From NCBI GenBank assembly GCA_017457385.1, contig JAFTHO010000130.1, forward strand, positions 1 to 58,608: a DNA stretch of 58,608 nucleotides, written 5' to 3'. Origin of the DNA: Clostridia bacterium (GTDB lineage Bacteria > Bacillota > Clostridia > Christensenellales > CAG-314). This document shows, one piece after another, positions 31,439 through 55,600 of the stretch; within the stretch, counting starts at the first letter, position 1; every line of letters begins with the position of its first letter. The notes beneath the pieces were generated by a model. The model searched no databases. It was not told the origin of the DNA and was given only the letters and a program-made list of their open reading frames with translations. The translations under genes and the position numbers were made by a program.

Positions 31439-31461
31439 GGTGATTGTTGTATCTTCAGTTA

Positions 31462-33759: not shown

Positions 33760-33854
33760 TTAAAAAATCTCCTTAAAAAAAATATAGTTGTAAAAGTGCA
33801 AGTGAGTATCAAAAAAAATATTAACTAAAGTTTGAGAAACACCCCCTTTATCAA

Positions 33855-33977: not shown

Positions 33978-34006
33978 AAAATATCCTTATCCCTAAAAGG
34001 GAATGC

Positions 34007-34072
34007 AGTTTTACAGGGATGACTGCCAACCCGAGTGAGGTAGTGTAGTTTTACAAGGATGACTGCCAACCC
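34007..34072 (+). repeat. Two 26-bp direct repeats AGTTTTACA(G/A)GGATGACTGCCAACCC, period 40 bp
   Basis: 34007-34032 and 34047-34072, one mismatch. Confidence 0.85.
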
Positions 34073-34073
34073 A

Positions 34074-34433
34074 ATGGTGGTGGTGTTTATTTTAAGTCTT
34101 ACCACCAACAGACTAAGAACAAAGGAGTTCAAAATGCATAACGCAATGGAGTGGTAATGTTTAACGTGCTAGACCACTAATGCACAATCGGTATAATTGC
34201 TGAAACCACTCAAGGTTTTGGGGTGGTAATTCTTTTCCGGACGGCTACCACGAATCCGTCTTACACGACCAAGATTAAACTCTGATTGTCGAGACTGAGA
34301 GTGTGAGAGATTTAAAATACATTTTTCGGAGGAAAACCTAAAATGTAAATAATTCAAAAAAGAAACTTTGACAAAAAGTCAGGGTTTAATGGTGGTGGTC
34401 TTTAATTTAAAGTCCTACCACCAACGGACTAAC
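34074..34433. repeat. Hairpin-repeat field: two related 44-45-bp GGTGGTGGT...TACCACCAAC...GACTAA units plus two further (A/G)GTGGT.../...ACCAC hairpins
   Basis: Related units at 34074-34117 and 34389-34433, about 85 percent identical. Additional hairpins near 34150-34178 and 34221-34251. Confidence 0.7.
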
Positions 34434-34474
34434 CAAAAATCAGATAAAAAGGAAGTGTATGGATTTAAAAACAA

Positions 34475-34750
34475 TCACTTTTTAGCGTGTCTGATATTCA
34501 CCCATTTTGGAACGTCAACATTGTTTTTGCGATCAAATTCAGTTGTAACGTCCAACAAAACTTCTTCACCGGGAACAGCTTTAAAAGCCCCAACGTCTGT
34601 GCGACATTTTCTCAAACGTGGTTCAGGCATAAAACCTTCTGCATCTGGTGCAAAAACTTCTGCAACGTAATGGTTTTCGCCAGTATACGTTTTGTTTTGT
34701 TCAGAAGTGAATGAATAAGCTTTACTTGTAAGATAGATATACTTTGACAT
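34475..34750 (-). CDS. Hypothetical 91-aa protein
   Basis: AAGGAG RBS. Third gene of the leftward operon. Confidence 0.6.
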   Translation of the reverse strand: MSKYIYLTSKAYSFTSEQNKTYTGENHYVAEVFAPDAEGFMPEPRLRKCRTDVGAFKAVPGEEVLLDVTTEFDRKNNVDVPKWVNIRHAKK

Positions 34751-34753
34751 AAG

Positions 34754-35038
34754 TTACTCCTTTGCCCTTTTGGGCTTTTTATATTTGTTCCGGTTTAAGC
34801 ATCCGGTGTGCTTTTTAAATTTTTTGATCAAGTTGTTTTCACAACTTCGATAAGCCTGCAGATAAGATACCGTTGACGTAAAGTGTGGGCAATCTACAAA
34901 CGTAACGTTAAATAAACGTTGTGGAAAAGTTTGTTGCCAAAGATCAGCAGGTTTTGCAGTTTCAAATCTACGTTGCACGTTGCAATTTGCCCTGATACAG
35001 AACATACAAGGTGCACAAACAACAACATCTGCACTCAT
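34754..35038 (-). CDS. Hypothetical 94-aa Cys-rich, C-terminally basic protein
   Basis: Its start overlaps the stop of the upstream gene. Confidence 0.5.
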   Translation of the reverse strand: MSADVVVCAPCMFCIRANCNVQRRFETAKPADLWQQTFPQRLFNVTFVDCPHFTSTVSYLQAYRSCENNLIKKFKKHTGCLNRNKYKKPKRAKE

Positions 35039-35247
35039 AATGCAATTGGTGTAGAAGACATTTGTCTGACGCCAAATATCTTATTGAGAATATAGTCATA
35101 CTCTTCAATTACAACTGTTCTGTTATTGCCTATAACAATAACGCTATAAAGGCCTTTTCTTGTTTTTACTTCTTCAACGGCATAAATGCTGTTGATTGTC
35201 ACAAAAAAGCGTGTGCCATCTTCTTTTGTTAATTGCATTGCGTTCAT
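35035..35247 (-). CDS. Hypothetical 70-aa protein, first gene of the leftward operon
   Basis: GGGGAGAG RBS. Divergent from the XRE gene. Confidence 0.55.
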   Translation of the reverse strand: MNAMQLTKEDGTRFFVTINSIYAVEEVKTRKGLYSVIVIGNNRTVVIEEYDYILNKIFGVRQMSSTPIAL

Positions 35248-35291
35248 TTCTTCACTCTCCCCTTTGTTCAGTAATTTTGATAATTAAAAAA

Positions 35292-35370
35292 ATACGATAA
35301 TATCGTATTTATAAAAATATTATAAACGGTAATATCGTATTGTCAAGACAAAAAAACAATTTTATCGTAT
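35292..35370. promoter_or_regulatory. Operator array in the divergent control region
   Basis: Palindrome ATACGATA-A-TATCGTAT (35292-35308), plus further TATCGTAT half-sites at 35333-35340 and 35363-35370, about 30-32 bp apart. Confidence 0.6.
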
Positions 35371-35394
35371 TTTTTTTTAAAAGGAGAACTAAAA

Positions 35395-35712
35395 ATGCTA
35401 AAAATCAAAGATGCTCGTAAAGAAAAAGGATTAAAACAATATCAACTTGCAGAAAAAGTAAATGTATCAGTTCAAACAATTAGTGGTTATGAAACTGGTT
35501 ATGCTAAACCACCAATTGAAATACTTATAAAAATTGCAGATGTATTAGAAACAACAACAGATTATCTTTTAGGTAGAGAATCGGAAATAGGAATTATAAA
35601 TGCAAATGCAAACCTTGCTTCCGATGAAGTGCAACTACTCGATTTATATCGTCAAATGAACTTTCAAGACAAAAACCAACTCATTGGCTTTGCTAAAGCT
35701 TTGGTTTACTAA
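35395..35712 (+). CDS. XRE-family HTH transcriptional regulator (repressor-like)
   Basis: LKQYQLAEKVNVSVQTISGYETG...LIKIADVLETTTDYLLGRE. AAGGAG RBS. Confidence 0.85.
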   Translation: MLKIKDARKEKGLKQYQLAEKVNVSVQTISGYETGYAKPPIEILIKIADVLETTTDYLLGRESEIGIINANANLASDEVQLLDLYRQMNFQDKNQLIGFAKALVY

Positions 35713-35726
35713 AAGGAGATAAAAAG

Positions 35727-36374
35727 ATGGCAGAAAAATTAGTATGTCCAATTTGTGGCGAACCAACAAGAGTGTACATGGGCAATGCACGTAAAGACAG
35801 ATTATGTGGCAAACATGCTGATGAACTTAAAGCCGGCAAGCTTGTTTTGGATGAAAAAGGAAACTTTGTATCAACAGAAAAAGAAGAAAGCAATCAAAAT
35901 GAATTAACTTGCATTATTTGCGGACAAATATCAAATGGATATCATTTTTGCAAAGACTGCTACAAAAAATATAAAGACAAATCAGTTGATTTAAGAATAA
36001 AAAATTGTACTGAAACAACAATTTTAGATGAATATGGAAACAGAAAATATACTTGCGAAGATGGAAGAAAAGTAAGAAGTCTACAAGAAAAAGTAATCAG
36101 CGACTTTTTATTCAATAATAAAATTAGAGCAATTTATGAAAAAGAAGTTTATTACACAGAAAATGATGAAGATAAAGTATTGCATCCAGACTTTTACCTG
36201 CCAGACTATGATATCTATATCGAACACTACGGTATGACAGGCAAAAAATACGAACAAATGAAGGAATACAAAGAAAGAATATATAAAGAAAACAACTTAA
36301 AATTAGTTGTAACCTGTCCGGAAGATCTGTCAAACATTGCAGCAAAATTAAAACCAATATTAAAAATTAATTAG
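35727..36374 (+). CDS. Zinc-ribbon protein with C-terminal PD-(D/E)xK-like nuclease motif
   Basis: CPICG...C and CIICG...CKDC ribbons, then SLQEKVISDFL...HPDFYLPDYDIYIEHYG. Confidence 0.6.
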   Translation: MAEKLVCPICGEPTRVYMGNARKDRLCGKHADELKAGKLVLDEKGNFVSTEKEESNQNELTCIICGQISNGYHFCKDCYKKYKDKSVDLRIKNCTETTILDEYGNRKYTCEDGRKVRSLQEKVISDFLFNNKIRAIYEKEVYYTENDEDKVLHPDFYLPDYDIYIEHYGMTGKKYEQMKEYKERIYKENNLKLVVTCPEDLSNIAAKLKPILKIN

Positions 36375-36417
36375 ACATTATATAATCTTTTCACCATGCA
36401 ACAGGAGGTTTTAACGT

Positions 36418-36543
36418 ATGGAATGGAAAGATTATGTAACAGCACTAACTCAAATTGACGGTCTTTTATGGCAAGTCATCGGCGCCATGAAAGCCGAACA
36501 AGCAAAAAAAATGCCCGGGAACAAACCAGGGCAAATGACGTAA
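36418..36543 (+). CDS. 41-aa ORF immediately upstream of int (possible Xis/RDF-like small protein)
   Basis: Found by manual translation (MEWKDYVTALTQIDGLLWQVIGAMKAEQAKKMPGNKPGQMT). AGGAGG lies 9 nt upstream of the ATG. Confidence 0.35.
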   Translation: MEWKDYVTALTQIDGLLWQVIGAMKAEQAKKMPGNKPGQMT

Positions 36544-36587
36544 CAAAAACAGTCAAGGCATTATCTTTACAACAACAAGGAGAAGAT

Positions 36588-37565
36588 ATGCCAAAAATCA
36601 AATTGAAAGCCTGTAGCATAAGACAAAGACCAAACGGTCTTTTTGAAGTCCGTTTTATACACGAAGGTCAAAGAATATCGGTATATGAACGTGAAAAAAT
36701 TGCTTGCATAAAAAAAGCAAACAAAAAAATCAAAGAAATGCAAACTTTGCCAGCCATTGAAAAAACTGTCTATTTTGACAGTTGGTTGCAAACCTGGTTG
36801 GAAACGTACAAAAAACCGAACGTATCAGAAGGGCAATTTAAAGCTTTAGAAGTTTGCTTGAGACTGCATCTGATGCCAAATATTCAACGTAAAGAGATCT
36901 CAAAAGTAACAGAACTAGAATGTCAGAACATACTTAACAAAATAAATGGTATAAGAACAAAAAAAGATGCCTTCAGCATTTTAAAAAATGCTTTTGACAA
37001 AGCTGTTGCAATGAACTACGTTGCAAAATCGCCAATGCAATTTTTGAAAAGACCAAAATACAAAAAACAAAAAGGAACTCCATTGAGCAAGAAAGAGCAA
37101 GCACAATTTTTAATTGACGTTCAGCACGTTACAGAAAAACAAGCTTTTTTGTTTTTGCTTTACTCCGGACTACGTCGTGGAGAACTATTAAGCTTGAAAT
37201 GGTCTGACGTGAAAGAAAACACGTTGCACGTGCCGGGAACAAAAACAGAAACGTCAAACAGAGTTATACCTTTGTTTGACAAACTAAAGGCAATACTAAA
37301 CGAAATGCCTAAAAATAACGAATTTATATTTAACCACGTAAAAGAAACGTTAACAAAAAAATTCAAAAAGCTGTGTCCGGAACATAAACTGCACGACTTG
37401 CGCCACACGTTTGCAACAAACTGTTTAGAAATGGGGATATCGATGAAAGTGGTTCAACAATGGTTAGGCCATGCAGACTTTGGAACAACTGCAAATATCT
37501 ATTCAACAGTGCTGGAAAAGTACAATAAAGAGCAAGCCGAAGTGTATAACAAAAAAATGCAATAG
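36588..37565 (+). CDS. int: Tyrosine site-specific integrase of the tRNA-Arg element
   Basis: LRRGELLSL, HDLRHTFATNCL and WLGHADFGTTANIY motifs. The ATG at 36588 follows AAGGAGAAG, and I reject the upstream extension of the track ORF. Confidence 0.9.
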   Translation: MPKIKLKACSIRQRPNGLFEVRFIHEGQRISVYEREKIACIKKANKKIKEMQTLPAIEKTVYFDSWLQTWLETYKKPNVSEGQFKALEVCLRLHLMPNIQRKEISKVTELECQNILNKINGIRTKKDAFSILKNAFDKAVAMNYVAKSPMQFLKRPKYKKQKGTPLSKKEQAQFLIDVQHVTEKQAFLFLLYSGLRRGELLSLKWSDVKENTLHVPGTKTETSNRVIPLFDKLKAILNEMPKNNEFIFNHVKETLTKKFKKLCPEHKLHDLRHTFATNCLEMGISMKVVQQWLGHADFGTTANIYSTVLEKYNKEQAEVYNKKMQ

Positions 37566-37575
37566 CATACCCCAA
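37548..37575 (+). repeat. 28-bp direct repeat (right arm copy) overlapping the int stop
   Basis: Identical to 25282-25309. Confidence 0.9.
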
Positions 37576-37684
37576 TTTATACCCCAATTCAAAAAAAATA
37601 AAAAAAATAACAGGCTGTTTTTGCCTGTTATTTTATGTAAAAGTGCAACAAAAAAGGCTTGTTTTCGTTCAAACAAGCCTAAAT

Positions 37685-37729
37685 TGGCGCGCCGTAAGAG
37701 ATTCGAACTCCTGGCCTTTTGGTCCGTAG
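37685..37729 (-). repeat. attR: 45-bp core within the intact tRNA-Arg
   Basis: Identical to 25175-25219. Identity ends at the 5' edge of the anticodon loop. Confidence 0.95.
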
Positions 37730-37761
37730 CCAAACGCTCTATCCAGCTGAGCTAACGGCGC
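37685..37761 (-). tRNA. tRNA-Arg (anticodon ACG), CCA encoded
   Basis: Manual cloverleaf: GCGCCGT/ACGGCGC acceptor, GCTC/GAGC D stem, TTTGG-CTACGGA-CCAAA anticodon arm, AGGAG-TTCGAAT-CTCTT T arm, G-CCA. Confidence 0.9.
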
Positions 37762-38847: not shown

Positions 38848-39870
38848 TTAAAATAACTTTGTATGCCAGGTGATTTTTATTGTGTGGTGTTGCTGGTTGA
38901 TCTGGCAGGTGGTAGTGATTGTTTTTGCTTTTGTTTGCAAAAGCAGTTGGTAGGTGAACAGGTCATATACCTGTTGTGGTGCATCAAATGCAGATGCATC
39001 ATATTTGATTTCTATGGCGGTGTCGCCACGTTTGAGAGCGTTTGCCACAATTTGCGTCACGTTTTGCTTGTTTTTGACAAACAGATTGTTTAACACAAAA
39101 TAGTCAAAACCATCGTTGTCGCAAGTTGGATAAAAATCTTTTATTTCGTGATCGATTGCAATTGCTTTGTCTGTCAACGCAAAATAGTTGTGGCTGACGT
39201 GACCATCGTCTGACGAGTTTACGTCCCAGGTGACGTCAATATGCACAGCCTTGCCGTCAAGTTTGGCAATGTTCCATGCATGCAACACGTCTTCGTTTTG
39301 AGAGGAGGTATCACTTGTTTTGCCAATGACAACAACGCATTTGATATCCAGTGCATTTAGCAGATATTTAAAAATTTTTGCAATGCCCTCGCACACAGCC
39401 GTCTTGAAAAAAAGCACACCCAGGATAGTGTTGCTTCTGCGATGAAAATGATGCAGGTTTTGCACAGCCTGTCTGTCATACAACACGTTTTTTACAAGCA
39501 GGTCGTGCAGACAAAGTGCCTTTTGAAAATCGTTTTTGCCCTTTACCTTTGCCAGAATTTTTTGCAACACTTTTTTTGCCTTGTCAAAGACGATTTCTTT
39601 TTCGTCCTTTGTATAGCAATATGCCGGTATGATATCCTGCTTTAAAAAATATTGCCGTGCCACAACGTCTGCAAAATCCACGTAAAACAAATGAGGGTTG
39701 TCCATGTTGATTGCATTTAGCACGTTTGAAAATACGCTTTGCGTGATGGTTTTGCCCGTCCACGTGATTTTTGCCTGCATTTCGTGCATGCCGTTGTATA
39801 TTGCTTTGTAAAGTTGCTTTTGGTCGTCAGGCAATTTAGAAAAATAATATCTGTCATAAACCATAGGCAA
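38848..39870 (-). CDS. Transglutaminase-like cysteine peptidase superfamily protein
   Basis: Cys-His-Asp triad context: AVCEGIAKIFKYLL, LHAWNIAKL, HIDVTWD. The start is either TTG at 39870, abutting the PP2C stop, or ATG at 39864. Confidence 0.75.
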   Translation of the reverse strand: MPMVYDRYYFSKLPDDQKQLYKAIYNGMHEMQAKITWTGKTITQSVFSNVLNAINMDNPHLFYVDFADVVARQYFLKQDIIPAYCYTKDEKEIVFDKAKKVLQKILAKVKGKNDFQKALCLHDLLVKNVLYDRQAVQNLHHFHRRSNTILGVLFFKTAVCEGIAKIFKYLLNALDIKCVVVIGKTSDTSSQNEDVLHAWNIAKLDGKAVHIDVTWDVNSSDDGHVSHNYFALTDKAIAIDHEIKDFYPTCDNDGFDYFVLNNLFVKNKQNVTQIVANALKRGDTAIEIKYDASAFDAPQQVYDLFTYQLLLQTKAKTITTTCQINQQHHTIKITWHTKLF

Positions 39871-40743
39871 TCACTTTTGTTTTTGAAAGATAACAGCCAC
39901 AGACATATCGTCGCCACTGCCCTTTTGTGACAATCGTGGCAAAAAGTCTGCCAGCTCGTCACGTGCCGCCGCAAACTCCTGAGTTGTATATCCCTCCACA
40001 ACGTTTGAGGCAAAATCCAGATAAGGTTGCTCTGCCAGATAGCAGTTGAAAATGCCGTCAGAAGTGACAACAATGCCAAGCACCTGTTTGTTTGCAACAG
40101 GCACAAAACAATGTTTAAAATCCATATCTGCCGAACTGCCACACAAAGAGGTCGTGAGGTTGAACTGCAACTGTTCGTCCACCATGGCAGGGCATATTGT
40201 CTCGATGCTTTGCATGCCCTTGTCTTTTGACAAAACGCACACGTTGCCGTCGCCAAGCTTTAACACAAAAAAGAAGGCTTTGCACAAAACCACCGCAACA
40301 AAAGTTGAGCCATATGCCTTGACGGGTGTGCCGTCTGCGTATGCCTTTTCGTTGTCGGCAAGTGCAAGATATTTTTCGTCCTGCGCAAACGGTTGTGTTG
40401 CAACGTCGTCTTCTACCGACATTATCCACTTTTGGATGATTGCTCTTTCCAGCTGACGGAGCATATCGTCACGCTGTTTTTCGTTTTGAACAAACTGTTT
40501 TTTGAGTTTTTTGTTGCCGTGCAAAACAGTCATAAAATCATTTATGGTTTCCTGACCGGCAAGACAGGCAAATTTTGATCCGACGGCACTGCGAAAGTGT
40601 CTGTTGCTGCCGTGGCCATCACACACGATAACTGCACGATATTTTTTGCCACACCACGACACAGAACTGTCCTGACACTCGGTGCCCTTTGTCACGTGAG
40701 AATATCCCTGCACAGAAATATTGTCTGCTGAAAAATTTTTCAC
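39871..40743 (-). CDS. PP2C-family Ser/Thr phosphatase
   Basis: VIVCDGHGSNRHFRSAVGSKFA and SGDDMSVAV motifs. GTG start with AAGGTG. Confidence 0.8.
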   Translation of the reverse strand: MKNFSADNISVQGYSHVTKGTECQDSSVSWCGKKYRAVIVCDGHGSNRHFRSAVGSKFACLAGQETINDFMTVLHGNKKLKKQFVQNEKQRDDMLRQLERAIIQKWIMSVEDDVATQPFAQDEKYLALADNEKAYADGTPVKAYGSTFVAVVLCKAFFFVLKLGDGNVCVLSKDKGMQSIETICPAMVDEQLQFNLTTSLCGSSADMDFKHCFVPVANKQVLGIVVTSDGIFNCYLAEQPYLDFASNVVEGYTTQEFAAARDELADFLPRLSQKGSGDDMSVAVIFQKQK

Positions 40744-40758
40744 TTTAACACCTTGTTT

Positions 40759-41502
40759 TTAATCCCATTGTTCGTCGTCGATATCCGGGATGTCCACAAC
40801 GATTGGCATATCGTTGTCTATATCTGCAATGGCTTTGTTGACCGCAGTTTGCGCATCTTCGTCAAGATTTGACATTGTGCCTGTTTTTGACACTGTTGCA
40901 GTAACAAACTGAATATACTGACGGATTTTGTCCGGGTCGTTGTCGTCGATAGAAATGACTGCCTCTTTTGTGCCACAAATCTGAGCAAGCACATCAAAGT
41001 CGGCATCTTCGCCAACGGCAAAGGCAACTTTTGTTGCAGATTTGAACCAGTTGTTTTTGTTGAGTTCTGCAAGTGCTTTTTGCCACTCGTCAGTTGGAGC
41101 ACCATCACTCAAAATGATCACACCAGGGGCATAATATCCCAAAGGGTTTTCGCTCAAAAAGGCTTTGCGTGACATTTTTTCGTTGAGAGAATTGAGGGCT
41201 GCGCCAAGGCTTGTGAGACCTTCGGCACAAACAGGCTTCCAGGTAGTGATAAAATCATCCGGAGTTTGTGGTTTTGGCGTGATCCACTCAACTGTGTTTG
41301 CAAAAGTTGCCGCAGCAATTTCTATCTGTGCGTTTGGCGCACCGTCAGACACGTCCTTGATGATTTTTGGAATATCTCTCATGGCAAAATTGACTTGTTC
41401 TATCTTTGTGCCCGCCATACTGCCAGACACGTCAAACAAATAAAACATAGTCATTGTTCTTGTTTGAATTGCTTCTACGTTGCTGTTGTCATATCTTCCC
41501 AT
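40759..41502 (-). CDS. von Willebrand factor A (TerY-like) protein
   Basis: MIDAS motif DVSGSM, with ILSDGAPTD further downstream. Confidence 0.85.
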   Translation of the reverse strand: MGRYDNSNVEAIQTRTMTMFYLFDVSGSMAGTKIEQVNFAMRDIPKIIKDVSDGAPNAQIEIAAATFANTVEWITPKPQTPDDFITTWKPVCAEGLTSLGAALNSLNEKMSRKAFLSENPLGYYAPGVIILSDGAPTDEWQKALAELNKNNWFKSATKVAFAVGEDADFDVLAQICGTKEAVISIDDNDPDKIRQYIQFVTATVSKTGTMSNLDEDAQTAVNKAIADIDNDMPIVVDIPDIDDEQWD

Positions 41503-41532
41503 TTTTTACACCTTCCTTTGCTTGTTTTTATA

Positions 41533-42843
41533 TCAGTTTTTTACCGTCAGTTTGTTTTTGCCAAAAACAATTGTTGTATCCGGCACAAGGGTGACTACCT
41601 CTCCCTTGTTGTAATTGCGTGCGGTCTGGTTTGGATAGGTGACCTCCCACACGTAGTCGCTTTCGTTTTTGAGGCCAAACACACCCGCAGTTTTTTTGCT
41701 TTCGACAAAAGATGCAATTGTTTTTGTTTTGTCGCCAAAAGACAAATGATATTCTGTAACAGTTTTGCCCTTGCCTGCAACCACCTCAAAATTGTCGCCC
41801 GCAACACTCACCGGTGCATGCACTGTTTTTTTGCATGACGCACAGTTTGTTTTGCCCTTTTTTATCATAGATGCAAAGTTGATTTCTCCACAATGTCTGC
41901 AAACCACAGCGTCATCCTGCAATTTGTACAACACTTTTGACCAGTCTCTTTCGGTAAGACGACTTGTGCCGTTTTTGAGTGCCATGTTGCTGAAAGCATC
42001 CTGAAAAGCATCTTGCAGATATGTCGGATAGGTTGGCCACAAATTGATGAGGTTTGAGCAGGTGCCCCTTACCGGAGCGTTTGACGTATCTGTTTTGCTG
42101 CACACAAACACAGGGTTTTGTGCATACAGCTCTTTTTCTACCTTAGGGGTGAGGCAAGGATATTTGCAACACTTTGCCCCGTTGAGCGGATGTGACAAAA
42201 AAAACAACTCAAACAAAATGACAGACAACGAAAACAAGTCTGTGCCCGCAGATGGTTTTGCCTGTCCAAGCAAAACCTCTGGTGCGATGTATCCGGGAGT
42301 GCCACTAACACCAAGGTTTTTGTTGTTTGGTGCAACGTTGTCGTTGTCGCAGATGAGCACGTCGCCTGTGTTTTTGTCAATAAAAAAGTTGCCCGGACTG
42401 AGGTCCTGATAGCTGTATCCTTTGCGGTGCAGACACATAAAAGCCTGCACAATGTTTGTTGCCGCATTGATGACTGCACCCGTGTTTGCAAAAAACTCTT
42501 TTGCCTTGATAAATTTTGTAAACTCGGCATAGTTGTCGGGACGCAAATCCATAACGTAACCAAAACCTTTGCTGTGCTTGCCTGTTGTGGCAATTGCCTT
42601 CATCCACAAAAAGTTTGGCGACGGACTGCCACTTGCAATGTTTGACGCCAGGTTGTTGTAAAACTTGTTTATACTTTTGAGCGAGCGAAGATATCTTTGC
42701 AGATACCACTTCATGGCATACTCTTTGCCGTTGTAGTCCACCTTGTAAACACAACCTTGTCCACCCTCGCCTATTTTTGATTTTACTGTGACAAAATCGC
42801 CGTTGGTGAGTTTTATTTTAGTGCCTTTTTTAAAGTCGTCCAT
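41533..42843 (-). CDS. Ser/Thr protein kinase with C-terminal zinc ribbon and FHA-like beta domain
   Basis: GEGGQGCVYKV, YAMKW, YQDLSPGNFFI and GTPGYIAPE kinase motifs, then CRHCG..CASC and a C-terminal beta-rich module. Confidence 0.85.
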   Translation of the reverse strand: MDDFKKGTKIKLTNGDFVTVKSKIGEGGQGCVYKVDYNGKEYAMKWYLQRYLRSLKSINKFYNNLASNIASGSPSPNFLWMKAIATTGKHSKGFGYVMDLRPDNYAEFTKFIKAKEFFANTGAVINAATNIVQAFMCLHRKGYSYQDLSPGNFFIDKNTGDVLICDNDNVAPNNKNLGVSGTPGYIAPEVLLGQAKPSAGTDLFSLSVILFELFFLSHPLNGAKCCKYPCLTPKVEKELYAQNPVFVCSKTDTSNAPVRGTCSNLINLWPTYPTYLQDAFQDAFSNMALKNGTSRLTERDWSKVLYKLQDDAVVCRHCGEINFASMIKKGKTNCASCKKTVHAPVSVAGDNFEVVAGKGKTVTEYHLSFGDKTKTIASFVESKKTAGVFGLKNESDYVWEVTYPNQTARNYNKGEVVTLVPDTTIVFGKNKLTVKN

Positions 42844-43059: not shown

Positions 43060-43431
43060 TTATAAATACTTTTTCTGCCATTGCATAAAATATTCAATCG
43101 ATATTTCTTCTATATCCTGATAGTCAAAAAATACATTAAATTTTCCTTTTGAGTCAACCAACAAAGTAAAAACTGTCCATTTATCTTTTTTCTTGAGTTC
43201 TTTTCTTTGTCTCATCAATACATTATCAATACTTTCAAAAAGGTCAAATATTTCAAAACTATTAATATCATATATTTTAAAGCAATCTATGTACCCTTTC
43301 CCCTTATCAACAAAAAACTTCATTTCATAACTGGACGAAGTGTATCCCGCATAAAAAGCCATTCTTTTCCATCCTTGCGGCAAAAAATCACTTATCAACT
43401 CTACCACTTGTTGCACCACTCTTCCTTCCAT
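43060..43431 (-). CDS. YezG/DUF600-like immunity protein
   Basis: Pattern WKRMAFYAGYTSSSYEMKFFV...F.LLVDSKGKFNVFFDY. The gene starts 2 nt after the toxin stop. Confidence 0.7.
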   Translation of the reverse strand: MEGRVVQQVVELISDFLPQGWKRMAFYAGYTSSSYEMKFFVDKGKGYIDCFKIYDINSFEIFDLFESIDNVLMRQRKELKKKDKWTVFTLLVDSKGKFNVFFDYQDIEEISIEYFMQWQKKYL

Positions 43432-43433
43432 TG

Positions 43434-45701
43434 CTATCCTCCAATAATGTCTGTTACATCGTTTTTGAAAACTTTCATATTGGCAACCCCGTCTATTGTA
43501 TATTTATAGACAAATCCTAATGGACGAAATGAAGATTCATCATAAAAAATCTCTATCGCTAAAAAAACATCCTTTCCGGCCTTTATTTGACTTTGTAACT
43601 GTTTTTCTAGTTGTTTTATTGGCCCCTGATTCAATTTTGCACTTTGAGGAACAAGATTTCCAAATTTATTTGAACCATTAAACATGTCAGACATTAAGTG
43701 ACCCTTCTGATCTCCTATAAGTTCGTCGCCTTTACCTATAACAGACATAGCCTCATTTATTGTTTTTCTTCCTGTACGGTCTGTCAAATAAAGATCCCCT
43801 TGGACTTTAGTTACTCTTCCTAATCCATCGGTTTTATACGTATAGTTGTTTATAGTATACGTATTATTTGGAACTAGATCGTTTCCTTTTCGATAAATAT
43901 TACCAGTGTCATCCAAGTAAGTTTTTGTTTTTGCAGTCGCTTTTACTAGTGCTGTTTTAGAAAACTTTTTATTGAATTTTTGCACAAGCTCAAAGCTTTT
44001 TACTTTTTGCACCAGGTTGTTTGCAATTTTGCTCAATGACTGAACAGGTGCACTCTCTATAATTGGTTTGACTATTTTTTTGACAACTGGTGTAGCAGCT
44101 TTAAATATGCCGCTGATGGTTGCCGCAATCAAAGCACCTGTACCAAATTTTTGGCATGCTTCTTCAAAAGTAGCGCCGTCGATAAGTGCGTTTACAAAAA
44201 ACTCCCCACCACCAATGAGAGCATCACAAGTAAGGTCTATGGCCGTGCGTGCCAATACTTGGACTGCCCTTGTTTTGCCAATTGACAAGCCAGAAACCCA
44301 CTGGTTTGCAGTTCCTGCCAAAGCACCGGCAATGGTTGCAACGGCTACTTTTTCCCATTGGATATCTGACACAGGAGTACTCGAAATAACAACTTGTGAA
44401 AAAGTCTCCATAGCCGCACCGATGACGGCACCGCCAACCTGATGGCCCACCACAGGGAGGCCAATTTCCACACATATACCAGCGACAATCGCAGCACCGC
44501 AAACCACAGAAGTAACGATTTTTTCATCCAGTGTAGCGAGTTTTTCGATCTGTATGATGTCTATTTTGCAAACACCGTCTGCATCTACAGAAATGCGCAA
44601 ATGTTGCATAGGGTCAATGCGGTTTGCAATTTCAACCAAAGTATCTACGTCCACACCAATAAACGTTTCTTCCTGCAGACCAAGCAAAAAGTCTGTTAAA
44701 ACCTGCTTGTTTTGTGTTGCATACGTTTTAAGATCTTCGTATGCCATATTTGCGTCTTGTGTGCGCAAAATGCGATTGATTTCATCTTCTATTATTTTGA
44801 ATTCTGCCTCACCAACAAGACTGACACCATCAACGGGAACATACTCCTGTTCTTCTACAATATAAACGTATTGATTTGTGTCATAGTTGAAAATATTGCC
44901 CCTGCTTTCATCAATTGTCATACCGACAAGAAACGGCTCTTTTGTATAAGACAAAACTCCATCAACAACGTCATATTTGATATAATAATTGTTTTTTACA
45001 CAATGCATGTGCAAATCTGAAGTCTTGTAATTGTATACGTAAGAAAACTCTTCGTCATATTCTTCTTCTAAAGAAATAATTTCCAAGCCTGACTCTATAT
45101 CATTTGTTGTTATTTCATGTTGTTCAAGCAAGGGGATAAAGCCGGCAGAAAAATATGTTTTTCTCTCCGCATCTACGTAGGCATCTTCATAATCCACGTA
45201 AGAAATACCAACAACTTCCTGCGGATCATCTTCTTCTGTTCTTGCAACAGAAGGCAACGTTACGTATCCTACAAAAGTATCGTATTGTGTGCCAAGGTCT
45301 GACAAAATCAAGCGATAAACAAACTGCTCTTCCCGGTCAATTGCATAGTCGCTAAAATCTTCTTCCGGCAGGGTGTCACCACCAGAATCCCCACCTGGTG
45401 TTTCACCAGGATTTGTTCCTGTGCCTTCGTTCCCAGAGCCACTGCCTTCATTTCCTGATCCATCGGCAGAGCCACTGTCCTCGTTTCCTGATCCAGTATT
45501 TCCGCCCGAACTGCCACCTGACTCATCGCCAGAGCCCGATCCTGAATTGTCACCCGATTCTGTCGTAGTATCATTGCCGCCGTTGGATCCTCCGCCTGAG
45601 CCAGGCTTTTTGCCTTCACATGCAACAAACATAAACATCATAATCAATGACATTAATACAGCTAAAAATGATATAAAAAATTTTTTCTTTTGTTTTTTCA
45701 T
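43434..45701 (-). CDS. Lipoprotein-type polymorphic toxin with C-terminal non-specific DNA/RNA endonuclease (YeeF-CT / Endonuclease_NS_2-like) domain
   Basis: ATG at 45701 follows GGAG. Signal peptide plus lipobox-like FVAC, then a G/S/N/E low-complexity linker and a glycine-zipper hydrophobic region with FGTGAL (pre-toxin TG-like). The C-terminus has DQKGHLMSDMFNGSNKFGNLVPQSAKLNQG. Confidence 0.75.
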   Translation of the reverse strand: MKKQKKKFFISFLAVLMSLIMMFMFVACEGKKPGSGGGSNGGNDTTTESGDNSGSGSGDESGGSSGGNTGSGNEDSGSADGSGNEGSGSGNEGTGTNPGETPGGDSGGDTLPEEDFSDYAIDREEQFVYRLILSDLGTQYDTFVGYVTLPSVARTEEDDPQEVVGISYVDYEDAYVDAERKTYFSAGFIPLLEQHEITTNDIESGLEIISLEEEYDEEFSYVYNYKTSDLHMHCVKNNYYIKYDVVDGVLSYTKEPFLVGMTIDESRGNIFNYDTNQYVYIVEEQEYVPVDGVSLVGEAEFKIIEDEINRILRTQDANMAYEDLKTYATQNKQVLTDFLLGLQEETFIGVDVDTLVEIANRIDPMQHLRISVDADGVCKIDIIQIEKLATLDEKIVTSVVCGAAIVAGICVEIGLPVVGHQVGGAVIGAAMETFSQVVISSTPVSDIQWEKVAVATIAGALAGTANQWVSGLSIGKTRAVQVLARTAIDLTCDALIGGGEFFVNALIDGATFEEACQKFGTGALIAATISGIFKAATPVVKKIVKPIIESAPVQSLSKIANNLVQKVKSFELVQKFNKKFSKTALVKATAKTKTYLDDTGNIYRKGNDLVPNNTYTINNYTYKTDGLGRVTKVQGDLYLTDRTGRKTINEAMSVIGKGDELIGDQKGHLMSDMFNGSNKFGNLVPQSAKLNQGPIKQLEKQLQSQIKAGKDVFLAIEIFYDESSFRPLGFVYKYTIDGVANMKVFKNDVTDIIGG

Positions 45702-45729: not shown

Positions 45730-48513
45730 TTAATTAATCTCTAACGTATTTTTAAAGTTATTGCCATATCTGTCAATAACAGCAACTTCATATTTGCCCG
45801 CCGCATCAAACGTCATTTCTTCTGTTTCTGACGCCATATAATAACTGAATGTTACATTGTTGTTTTTGTCTGTATATTTAATGCGAACAAACGTGCATGG
45901 ATCTATATAATCTGATACTTGTTTTATTGCAAAAGAAGTGCAAACCTTGTTTTGCAAAGTGTTTTCCTGCGACAATTGTTGTGATTGCTGATCAACTATA
46001 ACGGCAACTTTTGCAGGTTGATTGCCCTGCCTGATAAAACATACGTTATATTGGGCCATGATTGTACCATAAACGTTTGTTTCTTCAATAGCAACCAAAC
46101 CAGGCTCGCAACCAAGTTTTACAAACTGCTCATACAGACCTTCGCCATAATTTAAAGAAAAACTATTGCCTTTTGAATCCGTCGCTCTAAGCAAAAATGA
46201 ATCCAGACCAAGTACGTCTTTGATAAACATATAGTCTTGCTGTTCTTCTTCTATAACAGAATATCTTCCATCCTCGCCCTGCACAAGCACGGCCTTTTTT
46301 TGATAACTGATAATTTTTGCAACTTGCTGATCGTTTATAACCAGATTTTTAACCAAAGCTTTGTTTCGATGTTCTGCGTTATACCATACAATCACGGTTT
46401 TATCCAGCGCCTCACATTGCAAATCTTCAAACTTTGTTCCTTCTTCTTCAATTTCCTGTGCACTTTTTGACAAAGTCAATATTGAATACGTAGCAGAAAG
46501 ATCAAAAAATCCTTCGTGAACAGACGACTGTGCATATTCGTTGACGAGTGCTGCATTTTGCCAACCCGAAGCCGTAAAAACAGGTTCTCCTGTGCTTGTT
46601 CCATGAAAACGCCACTCTCCATCCCCAAGATATTCCAATTCGCTCCATGCCACTTTTGTTGCATAATCAAGTGCTGACACTTTATCTGCAAAAGCAACCC
46701 TCACTCTACCTTTGCCGGCAGTGTTGCGTGCCACGTAGTAATATTTTGGCACATAGTCTGACGGAGATGCTATCGAAAATCCCTTGAATTCATTTGTAGA
46801 CATCAATTCCTGATTTATCGTTTTGTCAACATCTTTGCCAACGAGTTTAAATTTGAATCTGTATACACGAACGTCACCTGACAACTCTACGTTGGCTCCG
46901 TTGATATATTTGTAATAATCAGGATGAGTATAAAAAATTGCTTCGTATTCGCCCCAGTCAAAAAGGGTCATTTGATACGTTTGCTCACCATTGTTGTATA
47001 CAGGCGTGCCATTATACCAGTTTTCTGCACCGGTACTTTTATTGATAACCCTACCATATAAAGGCAAACAATACTCCTGTGACACCTCTTGGAGCTTGAT
47101 TTTTAGTGGGGCAATAAATACAGGCACATCCATATATGCATCAAAAATTCTTTTGTTGCCATACCCGTTATCTGGCGAATAATCTATAAACTCATCACCA
47201 TACGTTTGGCCATTGTATATTTTTTTATTTCCAAAATAACGTACGTATGCTTCGTCTGCGCTTGCCCTGTCTATGTACAGAGTTTTTTGTATTATCCTGA
47301 CAGGATTTTCTTTTGGGGCACTGATTGTTATCGTGTATTTTCCAGTATCAGTTATTTCATAAAAAATTTGTCCGTCCGCCTCTTGTTTTTCTGGCAGATC
47401 AATATGCTCTCCATTTTTTTGAAGCAAAATGCCAAGATATGGATTTGCCGTGACATTTATTCTGAAACCGGTTGTTGTCATCGAATTATCTTTCATTGTG
47501 TCCATCATTTTATTAACAACACTAGAAAGATATTCGTTATATTGTTCCGTTTGTTTTTCAAATTCTTCTGAATTTTGACTGTCAGGTTTTGCAACTTGTA
47601 CAATTTCTTCTTTGTCGCTCAAGGTAAGATTATTAAACGAAACAACGTCCGGATTTGCGGCCACCACAAAAAACGTGTAACTTTCGCAAATGTTAAGATA
47701 TTCTGTCTTTTTTTTGTGATTTTCTAAAAACAAAAATTTGTCACATACGTCGGTATAATGCTTTACTTCATAAAAAAAGTTGACCGTAACGTATATGCCA
47801 CGTCTTACGTCGTCGCCATCCAGCACGTATTGTTGTGTTGTTCCATGATAATTGTTGAGCACGTTTGTTGTATACAGACCGTTTGCATATTTGCCCCCGT
47901 CTGCGACAGTCCAGTTTGTCTTGTCATAAGACGTCTGCACAACTATTGCACCCGTTTCTATTTTGCCAGTAACAACCTGCAAACCATTTGAAGTCACACT
48001 TTCCGGATTGTTGCCCGTCTGATGTTCGCCCCAGTCATCACTGTTCAGTTTGTAATATTCTTCTGACAGTTCACCCACAACGTGCCTATCTTCTGCAACG
48101 TAGTGAGTCAATGTATTTGGCGAAGTTGTTTCTTCGTTATCTATAGTTTCATCAACGTACAAATCTTTAAAAGAAACGTTTACGAAAAAATCGCTTGCAT
48201 TTGTTATGTAAATCGTTGGCTCGTTATAATTGACAACAAACTGATAGGCATTTTCTTCGGACGAACCAACAAAAAGTGACGTCATTGCTTTTTCATTTCC
48301 ATAAGGCAGACTTGTTGGCTGAACAGAATTGTATCCCTCGTCTTCTTCAGAAATATATATCTTTCTGAATTCGGTCAGATCTTTTTGAGTACCTGACGTT
48401 GCAGACGCAGTTGATATTGCCCATACATTTGCAATGCCAACAAAAGACCACACCATTGCAATCACACATATTGTAAATATACTGTACCACGCTTTTTTCG
48501 AAATAATTTTCAC
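45730..48513 (-). CDS. Large secreted hypothetical protein (927 aa)
   Basis: GTG start with GGAG and signal peptide ...VGIANVWA. It ends 28 nt upstream of the toxin ATG (45701) on the same strand. Confidence 0.75.
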   Translation of the reverse strand: MKIISKKAWYSIFTICVIAMVWSFVGIANVWAISTASATSGTQKDLTEFRKIYISEEDEGYNSVQPTSLPYGNEKAMTSLFVGSSEENAYQFVVNYNEPTIYITNASDFFVNVSFKDLYVDETIDNEETTSPNTLTHYVAEDRHVVGELSEEYYKLNSDDWGEHQTGNNPESVTSNGLQVVTGKIETGAIVVQTSYDKTNWTVADGGKYANGLYTTNVLNNYHGTTQQYVLDGDDVRRGIYVTVNFFYEVKHYTDVCDKFLFLENHKKKTEYLNICESYTFFVVAANPDVVSFNNLTLSDKEEIVQVAKPDSQNSEEFEKQTEQYNEYLSSVVNKMMDTMKDNSMTTTGFRINVTANPYLGILLQKNGEHIDLPEKQEADGQIFYEITDTGKYTITISAPKENPVRIIQKTLYIDRASADEAYVRYFGNKKIYNGQTYGDEFIDYSPDNGYGNKRIFDAYMDVPVFIAPLKIKLQEVSQEYCLPLYGRVINKSTGAENWYNGTPVYNNGEQTYQMTLFDWGEYEAIFYTHPDYYKYINGANVELSGDVRVYRFKFKLVGKDVDKTINQELMSTNEFKGFSIASPSDYVPKYYYVARNTAGKGRVRVAFADKVSALDYATKVAWSELEYLGDGEWRFHGTSTGEPVFTASGWQNAALVNEYAQSSVHEGFFDLSATYSILTLSKSAQEIEEEGTKFEDLQCEALDKTVIVWYNAEHRNKALVKNLVINDQQVAKIISYQKKAVLVQGEDGRYSVIEEEQQDYMFIKDVLGLDSFLLRATDSKGNSFSLNYGEGLYEQFVKLGCEPGLVAIEETNVYGTIMAQYNVCFIRQGNQPAKVAVIVDQQSQQLSQENTLQNKVCTSFAIKQVSDYIDPCTFVRIKYTDKNNNVTFSYYMASETEEMTFDAAGKYEVAVIDRYGNNFKNTLEIN

Positions 48514-48801
48514 TTTTTACTCCATATACGTTTTGTTTAAAACAATTAAACCGACTGTTAAAAATCTTTATGCCATGATATTTTTGACTGACCAATTTTT
48601 TTGTTGTTTTAACTTTTTAATCAAAAACAATGTGATATTTTTTAATTATTTTACAAAACTTTTGCATCCATTTCAAGCGGAAACAATCTTTTTGTATCAC
48701 TTTTTTTATTTTAGTTCAAAACGCCACATAAATGCTGTGACGTTGTTTGTCTTTTTGTTAATATATTTTAAAAAGCAACTGACAATTTGATTTTTTACAA
48801 C

Positions 48802-48831
48802 AAAAAACCACTCTGCAACAGAGTGGTTTTA
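48802..48831. terminator. Bidirectional terminator ACCACTCTG/CAGAGTGGT
   Basis: Hairpin flanked by A and T runs. Confidence 0.8.
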
Positions 48832-52626: not shown

Positions 52627-55600
52627 CTAAATGCGTTTGCGTCTTTTTATCAAAAACCAGATGCCAACGCCAATGCCACCTGCAAGGGCAACACTGCCTG
52701 CCACAATGCCAACTATTTCGCCTGCAAACAGTTTTGACTCGATAACAAACTCAACTGTTTTTTCTGCACCGCCAAAGTTGCTTGTTCCGGCAACAGTTAT
52801 TTTTGCGATATATTCGCCAGGTTTTGTTGGTTTTGTGCTTGAAAAGTTGCTTTCGCCTTTTTTTGCATAACTATATTGAACGTCGCCAAAGTTGCTTGTT
52901 GCGTTTATCTGCAAATCTTCGCCCCTTACGTTGCCCAAAACCGAAACGTCGCCAATAGTGGCTGTTGCCTTTGTGATTTCAAAATCAAAAATCAAATCAT
53001 CCGCACTGCCATCCGCCCAGATATTGTTTGCTTTGTCGCTGAGCGAATAAGTCACAGTATATACACCAACGTTTGTGCCACCATCGTTTGTGATGACAAT
53101 GCCATTTGTTGCAGATACGTCTGCCGTTTGTTTTTGTCCGTTGTAGATGACAGTTTGTTTTGTTGTATCTGGTTTTGATACGATTGCCTTTTCAATCTGG
53201 ATTTCAACTGCTTGTTCTGCCGAATAATAAAACTCGCTTTCGTGAACAAAAATTTTCATCCAATAAGTGCCTGCATTTGTCGGAACAGTGCCTGAATACA
53301 CACCGTTTTGGCTTGTTGCAAAAGAAAGGTCATATTCTTCAGCCCAATCTGCATCAATGTCATATGCTGGTTGTTCGCCAAAAGTCCAGCCACCAGACAC
53401 GTTTGAAATTACGTTTTGTTTTTTGTTGACAACAAGGTCAACCAGGCAAGTGATTTTTTGATTTTTAAGGTTTGTATATTGCAACGTCACCCCAGTATCC
53501 GTTGGATGAAAACCATTTTCGTTTGTCTGATAAACAATCTTCACGTCATCGTTGTCAACCAACTCTGTTTTGCCGTTGTTATACGTTGCAGAAACAACCA
53601 TGCCGTCTTTTTCAAACGGTTGGTCATAGATATATTCTTGTTTTGTTGGTTGTGTATCAACGCTTATTTTTGCAACGTCAATAAGTGTAACTGCAACTTT
53701 GTTTTGACTGTCTTTCATCAGGAAAAAGTCATTTACAGGTTGTGCGTTGTCAATCGTGCCTTTGTGCAACACAAACAGGTCTTCGTTGCAAACAAAGTTT
53801 TCAAACAAAACAATGTCTTCAATAACGGCAAGGTCACTCACGTTAACAACCACCTTTATTTCGTTTTGCAAATCTGCACCAGCCAAAACAACTGATTGAA
53901 CCGGGATATTTGCAAAATACACCGTTGAGACTTGTCCTGTGATATCTGCAGTGCTGTGTTTGTGTTCAATAAACAAACTTTCAACACTGCCACCATCCAA
54001 AGTGAACTTGCCCATGTTGCTCACCTGTTGCAAAGTGCTGTCACTTGCCTCAAACGTATCATTTGCAAAGTTATAAAGGTCGGCACCAAAGCTTGCAACG
54101 TTGTTTTTAATCGAAACATTGCTGACAGTTGCTTTGCTAAAGTTAAAAATGCCGCCACCTAATTGTGCAGTATTGTTGGCTATTTCACCACCATCAATAG
54201 TGAGTTCGCCATTGTTATAAATGCCACCACCGTCGCCTGTTGCAACGTTTTGCAAAATTGTTGCTCCTTGGAGTTGGACTGTGCTGTTGTTGTTGATATA
54301 AATGCCACCACCGGTTAATGCACTGTTGTCTGAAATTGTTGCTCCTTTGAGTTGGATTGTGCTGCTGCTGTTGATATAAATGCCACCGCCATATTCTGCA
54401 CTGTTGTCTGAAATTGTTGTGTCTTCAACAGTTGCAATGCTATTGCCAGAGTTGCTGATGCCACCACCTTCTCTTGTTGCAACGTTGTTTGAAATTGTTC
54501 CACTTGCAAAAGTGAGCGTGCCAGAGTTTAAAATGCCACCGCCATAATACGTTACACTGTTTTGCGAAACTGTTGTGTTTTCAGCAGTTACAGTGCTGCC
54601 AATGCCGTTATAAACGCCACCGCCATATTGTGCACTGTTGTTTGAAATTGTTGCACCTTCAACAGCAAGTTCGCCATTATAATTATTATAAATGCCACCG
54701 CCATAATCAGTTGCAACGTTTTCTGTTATTTCACCACCATCAACAGTTGTTGTGCCTTGGTTATAAATGCCACCGCCAGAAAGCGAACTTTCGTTTTTGC
54801 TTATCTTTGTGTCAGAGTCCAGAGTTGTTGTGCCAGAGTTATAAATGCCACCACCAGTCTCTGCAACGTTTTGCAAAATGATGCCACCAGACACAGTGAG
54901 TTCGCTATGGTTATAAACACCACCGCCATTATACGTTGCAGTGTTGTTTGAAATTGTGCCACCAGTTACATTGAGCGTGCCACTACTGTTAAAAACGCCA
55001 CCGCCATCATACGTTGCTACGTTGCCTGAAATTTCACCACCAGACACAGTAACTGTACCTTGGTTATAAATACCACCACCACTAGACATTGCAGTGTTTT
55101 GTGAAACAGATGCTGTCAAAATTTCAACTGTGCCAAAGTTATAAATGCCACCACCCTCATACGTTGCAGTGTTTTGTGAAACAGATCCTGTAAAAATTTC
55201 AACTGTGTCAGAGTTAAAAATGCCACCGCCATTATACGTTGCAGTGTTTTGTGAAATTGTTGCACCCTCAACAGAAAGTTCGCCACTATTATAAATGCCA
55301 CCGCCATATTGTGCACTGTTGTTTGAAATTGTTACTTCGTTGTGTATCGTTACACTTCTGTCAGGAGCGTTATAAATTCCACCACCATATCTGGTTACTG
55401 TGTTTTGTGAAACAAGTCCTGCCAAAATTTCAACCGTGCCAGAGTTATAAATGCCACCGCCATCATACGTTGCTTCGTTGCCTGAAATTTCACCATCATC
55501 AACAATGAGAATGCCTGCTTGATAGTTATAAATGCCACCGCCATCAACAGCACTGTTATTTAAAATTGAACTGCCTGACACAGTGAGTGTGCTTTCGTTA

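Follow-up and report, generated by a model that had tools for sequence, protein, structure and literature searches.

A predicted three-gene, Sec-dependent polymorphic toxin system with a lipoprotein-type toxin and an Ig-like partner in Clostridia

Here we describe a stretch of 58,608 nucleotides (nt) from a Clostridia bacterium (assembly GCA_017457385.1, contig JAFTHO010000130.1; the whole stretch is referred to as the window), in which three genes on the minus strand encode a partner protein modelled as a chain of immunoglobulin (Ig)-like domains, a putative toxin and its putative immunity protein. Judging from their sequences, the three genes probably form an operon for a Sec-dependent polymorphic toxin system that belongs to a previously undescribed family. 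We regard it as highly likely that this is a polymorphic interbacterial toxin system equipped with a new Sec/lipoprotein-type trafficking module and with a partner. An initial annotation of the window had placed the toxin and immunity open reading frames (ORFs) exactly where we found them; the upstream gene of 927 amino acids (aa) was absent from it. The features of the operon are as follows.

45730..48513, minus strand: partner gene, 927 aa; signal peptide followed by a modelled Ig-like beta-sandwich chain, without C-terminal anchor
43434..45701, minus strand: toxin gene, 755 aa from the ATG; lipoprotein signal and predicted EsaD/YeeF-type nuclease C-terminus
45618..45701, minus strand: signal peptide with lipobox F-V-A-C, toxin residues 1-28 (Cys28); the Cys column is conserved in alignment A1
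45348..45617, minus strand: disordered G/S/N/E/D-rich linker, toxin residues 29-118; predicted local distance difference test score (pLDDT) <50, family column identity 0.07-0.17
44532..45347, minus strand: conserved, putatively extracellular part of the constant module, toxin residues 119-390; column identity 0.39-0.69, mostly >0.55
44073..44531, minus strand: five Gly/Ala-rich hydrophobic helices, H1-H5 (predicted), toxin residues 391-543
43902..44072, minus strand: Lys-rich helical linker, toxin residues 544-600; constant-to-variable junction at about residue 580
43434..43901, minus strand: predicted beta-beta-alpha-Me non-specific endonuclease of the EsaD/YeeF type, toxin residues 601-755 and stop codon; PF13930, 8guo, 8gun
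43060..43431, minus strand: immunity gene, 123 aa; YezG/EsaG (DUF600) family

Results

The toxin ends in an EsaD/YeeF-type nuclease domain and is followed by a YezG-like immunity gene

The C-terminus of the toxin had been proposed to be a YeeF-type nuclease, and our searches bear this out. Toxin residues 611-737 match PF13930 (Endonuclea_NS_2) with an E value of 4.4e-24 and 85.6 bits (cut-off 27), and the same residues match the Staphylococcus aureus EssD/EsaD structure, by sequence to 8guo (E 1.9e-12) and, using Foldseek, by fold to 8gun (E 4e-7). The catalytic His of the GHL motif aligns with that of the EssD GHL, the His that has been mutated in 8gun, where the motif reads GAL (H528A mutant). 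We predict that the toxin C-terminus is a non-specific DNA/RNA endonuclease of the EsaD/YeeF type.

The 123-aa protein encoded next, also anticipated as a YezG/DUF600 immunity protein, matches PF04634 (YezG-like) with E 1.4e-10 and 42 bits (cut-off 21.7), and TIGR01741 with E 7e-5, which is under the cut-off of that model. Its sequence carries no signal peptide, and it is predicted to be a cytoplasmic, cognate-type immunity protein of the YezG/EsaG family. The immunity ATG lies 2 nt past the toxin TAG, exactly the spacing originally given, and its ribosome-binding site, GGAGGA, is located within the last toxin codons; the immunity gene appears to be translationally coupled to the toxin gene. 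The toxin ATG itself has a GGAG 7 nt upstream. A TTG at 45713 is unlikely to be the toxin start because it overlaps the toxin ribosome-binding site. PADLOC returned no match for the toxin, the immunity protein or the partner. Orphan C-terminal/immunity cassettes, which the initial annotation had suggested looking for, are absent from the window, as tblastn found no further toxin or immunity copies there.

A constant N-terminal region is combined with exchangeable C-terminal domains

A first search of 5.8 billion protein clusters recovered 33 relatives, all unnamed metagenome proteins (alignment A1), which are 30-49% identical to the window toxin, except for the near-identical P0001. Between residues ~120 and 580, column identity in this alignment is mostly 0.55-0.73, with four stretches at 0.32-0.39; beyond residue ~580 it is 0.11-0.17, and at the junction itself it falls from 0.37 to 0.17. 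The C-termini of these close relatives belong to PF13930 (Endonuclea_NS_2), PF14436 (EndoU_bacteria), PF12639, PF14411 or PF14414, or are unrecognised; by name, the recognised domains are Endonuclea_NS_2, EndoU_bacteria, Colicin-DNase, LHH and WHH. YezG-like genes follow PF13930 toxins only (the window, L003 and L008). The small ORFs found downstream of the other C-termini differ from one another, are unnamed and measure 82-160 aa, and the six of them that we examined have no Pfam match. Thus, the combination of a common N-terminal part of ~580 aa, at least six C-terminal nuclease families and differing downstream small genes indicates a true polymorphic toxin, as had been claimed for the window protein, with the exchange of C-terminal families taking place at about residue 580.

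We then searched 1.84 billion representative sequences with a profile of the constant region (A3), which gave 248 clusters at E <= 1e-3, 110 of them at E <= 1e-30. Among 61 proteins of this wider family whose domains were scanned (60 relatives and the window protein), WHH (16) and Colicin-DNase (9) were found; relatives fused to the partner carry Tox-REase-9, or a PT-HINT autoprotease domain between module and toxin. None of the family proteins checked carries a name. tblastn gave no match in 72,556 plasmids, 50,697 phages or IMG/VR, and two species-representative genomes harbor a relative, both metagenome-assembled genomes (MAGs), one of an uncultured Eubacteriales and the other of an uncultured Roseburia sp.

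Some of the related loci have a setting of their own. A distant cassette (1254-aa partner, 674-aa toxin and 132-aa ORF; L014 1-19674) is located in a region resembling an integrative and conjugative element, with genes for TraG, NlpC/P60, a CD1107-like protein, a sortase and a topoisomerase. In L006/L007 (13046-22148), a gene for an FtsK/SpoIIIE protein of 1037 aa and many successive small ORFs, none with a Pfam match, begin 0.9 kb past the cassette; this region could be a conjugative element or another export apparatus, and it has no WXG100, YukD or EssB annotation. The most distant module protein that we inspected, P0150, is encoded next to an alpha-amylase gene, which takes the upstream place of the partner, and no small ORF follows on the same strand.

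The toxin starts with a lipoprotein-type Sec signal

A Sec signal with a lipobox-like FVAC, followed by ~90 aa of low-complexity linker, had been reported at the toxin N-terminus, and both elements hold. The sequence MKKQKKKFFISFLAVLMSLIMMFMFVAC satisfies the PROSITE-type lipobox rule at Cys28, whose column is conserved among relatives, and residues 27-118 are G/S/N/E-rich and disordered in the AlphaFold model (pLDDT <50). Under the strict rule, a lipobox is found in 27 of the 33 close relatives and in 60 of 93 stand-alone members of the wider family, a proportion that rises to roughly 80% after inspection of the N-termini rejected by the rule; many of these read LSGC, LHGC or VAC and fail only through neighbouring residues. 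The 31%-identical relative in L002 has a textbook lipobox, LLSGC. A hydrophobic Sec-type N-terminus is present in 80 of the 93 stand-alone members and in 16 of 18 fused members. In P0007 and P0026 (L011 5916-9158), ~400 aa of Cys-rich repeats with the motif ...PTCTExGY...C..C... are inserted between the lipobox and the constant module.

We considered and rejected a cryptic LXG or WXG100 domain. Neither LXG nor WXG100 nor any other known trafficking domain was detected in Pfam scans of 33 members (E <= 1) and of 60 further members (E <= 0.001). In the model, the toxin begins with a disordered stretch that leads into beta-rich structure and shows no LXG helical hairpin, in agreement with what had been noted for this protein. 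The absence of type VII secretion system (T7SS) genes from the window was likewise upheld: no EssC-type FtsK/SpoIIIE, YukD or EssB/YukC gene was found among the window ORFs scanned with Pfam, which comprised those of at least 120 aa other than six ORFs of the his operon and accordingly left out genes of WXG100 size. EssC, EssB, EsaA, YukD and WXG100 were not found in the related loci inspected either.

The constant module contains five predicted hydrophobic helices and has no recognisable fold

In the model, toxin residues 119-390 comprise a beta-rich domain (123-290), helices (301-361) and a beta-hairpin (366-384), with pLDDT of about 75-89 over residues 121-280. No match to the constant module was found in Pfam, NCBIfam or PADLOC, nor in the Protein Data Bank (PDB), whether by fold or by sequence, where a profile search gave nothing below E 0.1. 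A known fold was rejected, as Foldseek against the PDB matched the C-terminal nuclease only.

The Gly-rich hydrophobic stretch containing FGTGAL that had been pointed out upstream of the nuclease is real, and is one of five predicted helices between residues 391 and 543, with FGTGAL (residues 519-524) lying within H5. Its reading as a pre-toxin TG module was not supported. PT-TG (PF14449) was rejected, since no profile match was obtained in the window toxin or in the 93 members scanned and the TG motif is not conserved, the T of FGTGAL being Y in most relatives (consensus NFGYGV). The helical region is conserved in other respects: E432, Q436 and W449 are invariant, and D489, D493 and E500 nearly so. 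By sequence, such residues are unusual for a simple membrane anchor.

The measures of topology that we applied conflict with one another. H1 has transmembrane (TM)-grade hydrophobicity in 111 of 111 members (Kyte-Doolittle >1.6, median 2.24), H2, H3 and H5 reach borderline values only, and H4 is an amphipathic helix that carries conserved acidic residues. A simple Hessa-scale sum places H1 near the insertion threshold (+1.6) and H2 to H5 at about +3 to +8.5 kcal/mol, as compared with -3.7 for the signal peptide. Loop charges are -3 before H1, +0.25 in L1, -0.5 in L2, +0.2 in L3, -1 in L4 and +2.3 in the tail, so that the segment after H5 has a net positive charge. Profiles of the helical region (window residues 391-543; residues 323-426 of the L014 toxin) gave weak matches to TM7S3_TM198 (E 2e-4) and to an MscS TM segment (E 0.1).

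A secreted Ig-like partner is encoded upstream of the toxin

The AlphaFold2 model of the 927-aa partner (pLDDT 82) consists of a signal helix and then a chain of beta-sandwich domains, and its signal peptide ends in a cleavage-like ...NVWA/IS site. On this model, the partner is a secreted chain of Ig-like domains. It has no match in Pfam (including Peptidase_S8), NCBIfam or PADLOC. A more specific function was rejected, as Foldseek (PDB, BFVD) returned generic multi-Ig proteins only (Robo, gp130, the GhpA grappling hook and the EA1 S-layer protein, with TM-scores of 0.1-0.2) and a profile search against the PDB found nothing. The variability profile of the partner reveals no clear hypervariable receptor-binding domain; the protein is more variable only at residues 121-150 and in its last ~90 aa.

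A partner-sized gene is located directly upstream of the toxin gene in all nine core cassettes inspected (the window, also seen as L008; L003-5; L006/7; L009/10; L011; L012/13; L014; L015; and L016/17), and the flanking genes differ. The family of the partner is no larger than that of the close toxin relatives, with 29 clusters, and several of its members share a contig with a toxin. Even the distant cassettes align with hhalign, both through their toxin modules (L014, E 3e-50; L015, E 5e-46) and through the partner (L016, E 1e-125). Moreover, ~18 representatives of 1860-2144 aa have the partner and the toxin fused in a single protein. We tested P0131, in which the partner profile covers residues 169-1006 (hhalign, E 2.6e-55) and the toxin module residues 1313-1773, followed by a Tox-REase-9 end; the other fusions were assigned from their length and module position. 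Because of this strict synteny and the gene fusions, we consider the partner integral to the system; by sequence, it is obligate and genetically inseparable from the toxin in the core family.

Between the two halves of the fused proteins there are two TM segments with a basic loop. Stand-alone partners come in a long type (1230-1384 aa), which has a C-terminal TM anchor, and a short type, as in the window, which has none. The two TM segments of the fusions correspond to the C-terminal anchor of the long-type partner and the signal sequence of the toxin, and this arrangement would place both ectodomains outside the cell, side by side. In the short type, the lipid-anchored toxin may hold the complex on the cell.

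Genomic setting of the operon

The window is chromosomal Bacillota DNA: it holds DnaD/DnaB_2 and DnaI-like genes, which fit Bacillota, together with a his operon and LuxS. The operon is flanked on one side by an MscS gene with a strong terminator and on the other by a kinase/VWA/PP2C/transglutaminase cluster, and its immunity end has the lowest GC content of the region (0.318). Two further features lie 5' of the partner gene.

48648..48676, minus strand: promoter-like site, TTGAAA, 17 nt, TAAAAT, 5' of the partner gene (consensus match only)
48804-48830: strong terminator hairpin of the preceding MscS gene; the promoter-like site comes after the hairpin

Directly downstream of the cassette, genes for a Ser/Thr kinase, a VWA protein, a PP2C phosphatase and a transglutaminase-core protein occupy 38848-42843 (minus strand); PADLOC matched the kinase only. 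The same set, with a DUF4011 helicase, follows the cassette in L011 (9857-19083), and a helicase and a kinase follow it in L012 (14644-19771). We presume that the kinase/VWA/PP2C set may be a TerY-P-like signalling or defence triad.

A low-GC island (0.31-0.39) at about 25000-37761 looks like an integrated mobile element. It carries a Rep_1 replication protein (25652-26725), two large ORFs without Pfam match (27126-29423 and 29952-31295), a Listeria-Bacteroides-repeat protein (31462-33480) and an integrase (36468-37565) that adjoins a tRNA-Arg (37685-37761). A candidate second integration site, at 93-3242, contains a PcfJ-like gene (93-929), a second tyrosine integrase (1662-2903) and a tRNA-Thr (3167-3242). 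The window also encodes a 1676-aa protein with Chlamydia-PMP repeats and a Big_3 domain (52627-57657, minus strand) and a 1085-aa ORF without any Pfam match (5969-9226, plus strand).

Discussion

A model for delivery and its alternatives

Our model suggests that the toxin would be exported by Sec and lipidated on Cys28 by Lgt/Lsp, and that the ~90-aa linker would let the module reach through the cell wall. There, the partner would bind the constant module, and the two would be displayed on the surface as an apparatus for recognising a neighbouring cell. Helped by the Lys-rich segment and the membrane potential of the target, the hydrophobic helices would then enter the target membrane and bring the nuclease to the cytoplasm of that cell, with the PT-HINT domain cutting the toxin free in some relatives. 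Once inside, the nuclease would degrade nucleic acid unless the cognate immunity protein is present. We infer the delivery mechanism, and also the side of the membrane on which the nuclease domain lies in the producer cell, from the features described above. A surface-tethered, contact-dependent mode seems to us a little short of evenly balanced, and we are slightly more reserved about the helical region acting as an entry (translocation) domain. With similar reserve, we put forward the tentative hypothesis that partner and lipoprotein toxin together constitute a self-contained contact-dependent inhibition apparatus of monoderm Clostridia, requiring no specialised secretion system, in which the Ig-like stalk or adhesin docks on the neighbour and the five-helix, Lys-tailed module threads the nuclease in.

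Several points weigh against this model. What we say about lipidation, exposure at the surface, binding between partner and toxin, toxicity and neutralisation is prediction. H1, with a Kyte-Doolittle value of 2.29 in the window toxin, is predicted to be hydrophobic enough to stop Sec translocation. The loop charges alternate weakly, as they would for a five-pass membrane protein in the N-out/C-in orientation, a topology that would place the nuclease within the producer's own cytoplasm, and the AlphaFold2 model of the helical region is of low confidence (pLDDT 36-76). In addition, P0150 (L018 6001-8370) has no partner upstream, and at its edges the family may include members that lack one. Finally, the window makes only 58.6 kb of the host genome visible, and a T7SS may be encoded elsewhere.

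The membrane-related points lead to an alternative that we consider clearly improbable, namely that the toxin is a polytopic membrane protein whose five helices span the producer membrane and whose nuclease stays inside in complex with the immunity protein. Partner and beta-domain would then be a sensor, and the nuclease would either be released inward, as in suicide or abortive infection, or be expelled through the helices of the toxin itself. Such a protein is suggested by the TM-grade H1 of every member, the alternating loop charges and positive tail, the conserved polar and acidic helix residues (E432 and Q436 invariant; D489, D493 and E500 nearly so), the weak matches to multi-TM families (TM7S3_TM198, E 2e-4; MscS TM region, E 0.1) and the cytoplasmic immunity protein, and it has a precedent in the PrsW conduit proposed by Zhang et al. 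2012 (PMC3482391). However, H2 to H5 are not autonomous TM helices on the simple Hessa-scale sum, PF13367 (PrsW) is not matched and the helices have no conserved His. Furthermore, it is exported interbacterial toxins that characteristically have YezG/EsaG immunity, polymorphic C-termini and PT-HINT. Because the conserved lipid anchor would be redundant on a five-pass protein, we favor insertion of the module into the target membrane from outside.

A lipoprotein that is shed or proteolytically released, alone or bound to the partner, could act at a distance through a receptor as a diffusible bacteriocin-like complex, and the system would then resemble colicins, ABP/S8-PTS toxins or umbrella particles, not contact-dependent inhibition. 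This is unlikely, in our view, though a good deal less so than the polytopic alternative. In its favor, the signal peptide of the short-type partner looks cleavable and the protein lacks an anchor of its own, the PT-HINT domain of some relatives implies that the C-terminus is released by autoproteolysis, and a Lys-rich segment precedes the toxin domain; as a loose analogy, ABP toxins have been reported to unite cationic-peptide properties with a polymorphic toxin and have been called 'electrostatic-homing'. On the other hand, the lipobox is kept in roughly 80% of the stand-alone toxins, long-type partners have C-terminal TM anchors and the fused proteins keep two TM segments, which argues for selection to stay on the producer membrane. 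An ordinary T7SS substrate whose LXG domain has diverged beyond recognition is close to refuted. It would account for a nuclease domain and immunity family like those of the T7SS toxins EsaD and YeeF, and L006 has its 1037-aa FtsK/SpoIIIE gene 0.9 kb downstream; but it is contradicted by the hydrophobic Sec-type N-terminus of 80/93 stand-alone and 16/18 fused members, by the lack of LXG/WXG100 matches (E <= 1 in 33 members, E <= 0.001 in 60 more), by the disordered, then beta-rich N-terminal model, and by the absence of EssC, EssB, EsaA and YukD from the window ORFs scanned and the other loci inspected.

Significance

A 2026 review of antibacterial protein toxins of Gram-positive bacteria lists as routes only the T7SS/LXG pathway, WapA-like wall-attached filaments, the umbrella particles of Streptomyces and ABP/S8-PTS (PMC13460014), and a 2026 study of nuclease effectors in gut Bacillota reports that most carrier MAGs are devoid of any secretion system dedicated to toxins and describes the means of delivery as unknown (PMC13556189). 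Our literature searches found no description of the constant module or of the partner, which together we regard as a new trafficking family within polymorphic toxin systems. The unit is compact, with three genes, and is represented by about 250 sequence clusters, essentially all from uncultured bacteria. The variants that occur in nature, whether fused or split, anchored or unanchored, already amount to a genetic dissection of the system, and the unit offers a candidate, open to testing, for delivery of lipid-anchored toxins between monoderm bacteria by a Sec-dependent route. Alignments A2 and A3 provide two new profiles for mining the toxin and immunity repertoires of microbiomes. If the apparatus is indeed self-contained, it would be a new delivery route and would answer how gut Clostridia without a T7SS deliver polymorphic nuclease toxins.

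Comparison with known systems

The closest likeness in the cargo is to EsaD-EsaG of S. aureus and YeeF-YezG of Bacillus subtilis, which also combine a PF13930 nuclease with a PF04634/DUF600 immunity gene directly downstream. Those pairs use LXG/T7SS, whereas the system described here has a Sec/lipobox signal, a different constant module of ~460 aa and an obligate Ig-like partner.

For delivery, the SitA/SitI system of Myxococcus offers a parallel, as its lipoprotein toxins are delivered by TraA/TraB outer-membrane exchange (PMC10433427). Both systems are lipobox-led and polymorphic, with a family-defining N-terminal domain (the SitA 'escort'), mostly nuclease C-termini and cytoplasmic immunity; a polymorphic Ig-like cell-surface receptor is involved in SitA delivery, as compared with the Ig-like partner here, and some loci of both are on mobile elements (PMC10433427). 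SitA relies on outer-membrane fusion in diderms, whereas here the host is apparently a Clostridia-type monoderm, so that outer-membrane exchange is not applicable, and partner and toxin share an operon and, in some relatives, a single polypeptide; we liken the two by description only.

In MafB/MafA of Neisseria and APD1/APD2 of Amoebophilus, as in this system, a signal peptide is followed by a constant N-terminal domain specific to the lineage, the C-terminus is polymorphic and a conserved accessory surface protein is encoded upstream; both APD1 and APD2 carry a lipobox (PMC3482391). In Maf, the accessory MafA is the lipoprotein, whereas here it is the toxin; the domains are unrelated, without Pfam match, and the Maf and APD hosts are diderms.

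Among Bacillota, S8-PTS/ABP systems (AbpP protease, AbpT toxin and AbpI immunity) are likewise three-gene, Sec-dependent and polymorphic; in them, too, the toxin has a signal peptide and a novel domain at its N-terminus, and an accessory protein that is secreted is encoded alongside (PMC9424270, PMC13460014). Their accessory protein is an S8 peptidase, whereas here it is a ~920-aa Ig-like chain without Peptidase_S8 match; their toxin has a small BetaH domain and is diffusible, whereas here it is a lipoprotein with a five-helix region, the contrast with BetaH being by description only. Membership in S8-PTS/ABP was rejected, as no S8 subtilase is adjacent and the partner is modelled as Ig-like beta-sandwiches.

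WapA and CdiA resemble this system in their Sec export, in an extended extracellular stalk and in a constant region leading to an exchangeable toxin and its immunity gene, and the fused relatives of ~1900 aa resemble such a single long surface toxin. Here, by contrast, there are no RHS or filamentous-haemagglutinin repeats, wall-binding domain or TpsB partner, and stalk and toxin are usually separate; Pfam found no RHS/YD or filamentous-haemagglutinin repeat in the toxin, the partner or 93 relatives. The PrsW-fused toxins of Gram-positives, too, have a multi-helix membrane domain N-terminal to an exchangeable toxin, which Zhang et al. 2012 proposed to be the toxin's own export conduit (PMC3482391). 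PrsW has eight TM helices and peptidase motifs at the extreme N-terminus, whereas here five helices without these motifs come after an exported region of ~370 aa.

Taken together, the toxin domain and the immunity protein are members of the EsaD/YeeF and EsaG/YezG families, and the delivery part is not of the LXG/T7SS type; although our Pfam scans brought to light no domain in common with SitA, MafB/MafA, APD, S8-PTS/ABP or WapA/CdiA, this delivery part resembles all of them in its logic.

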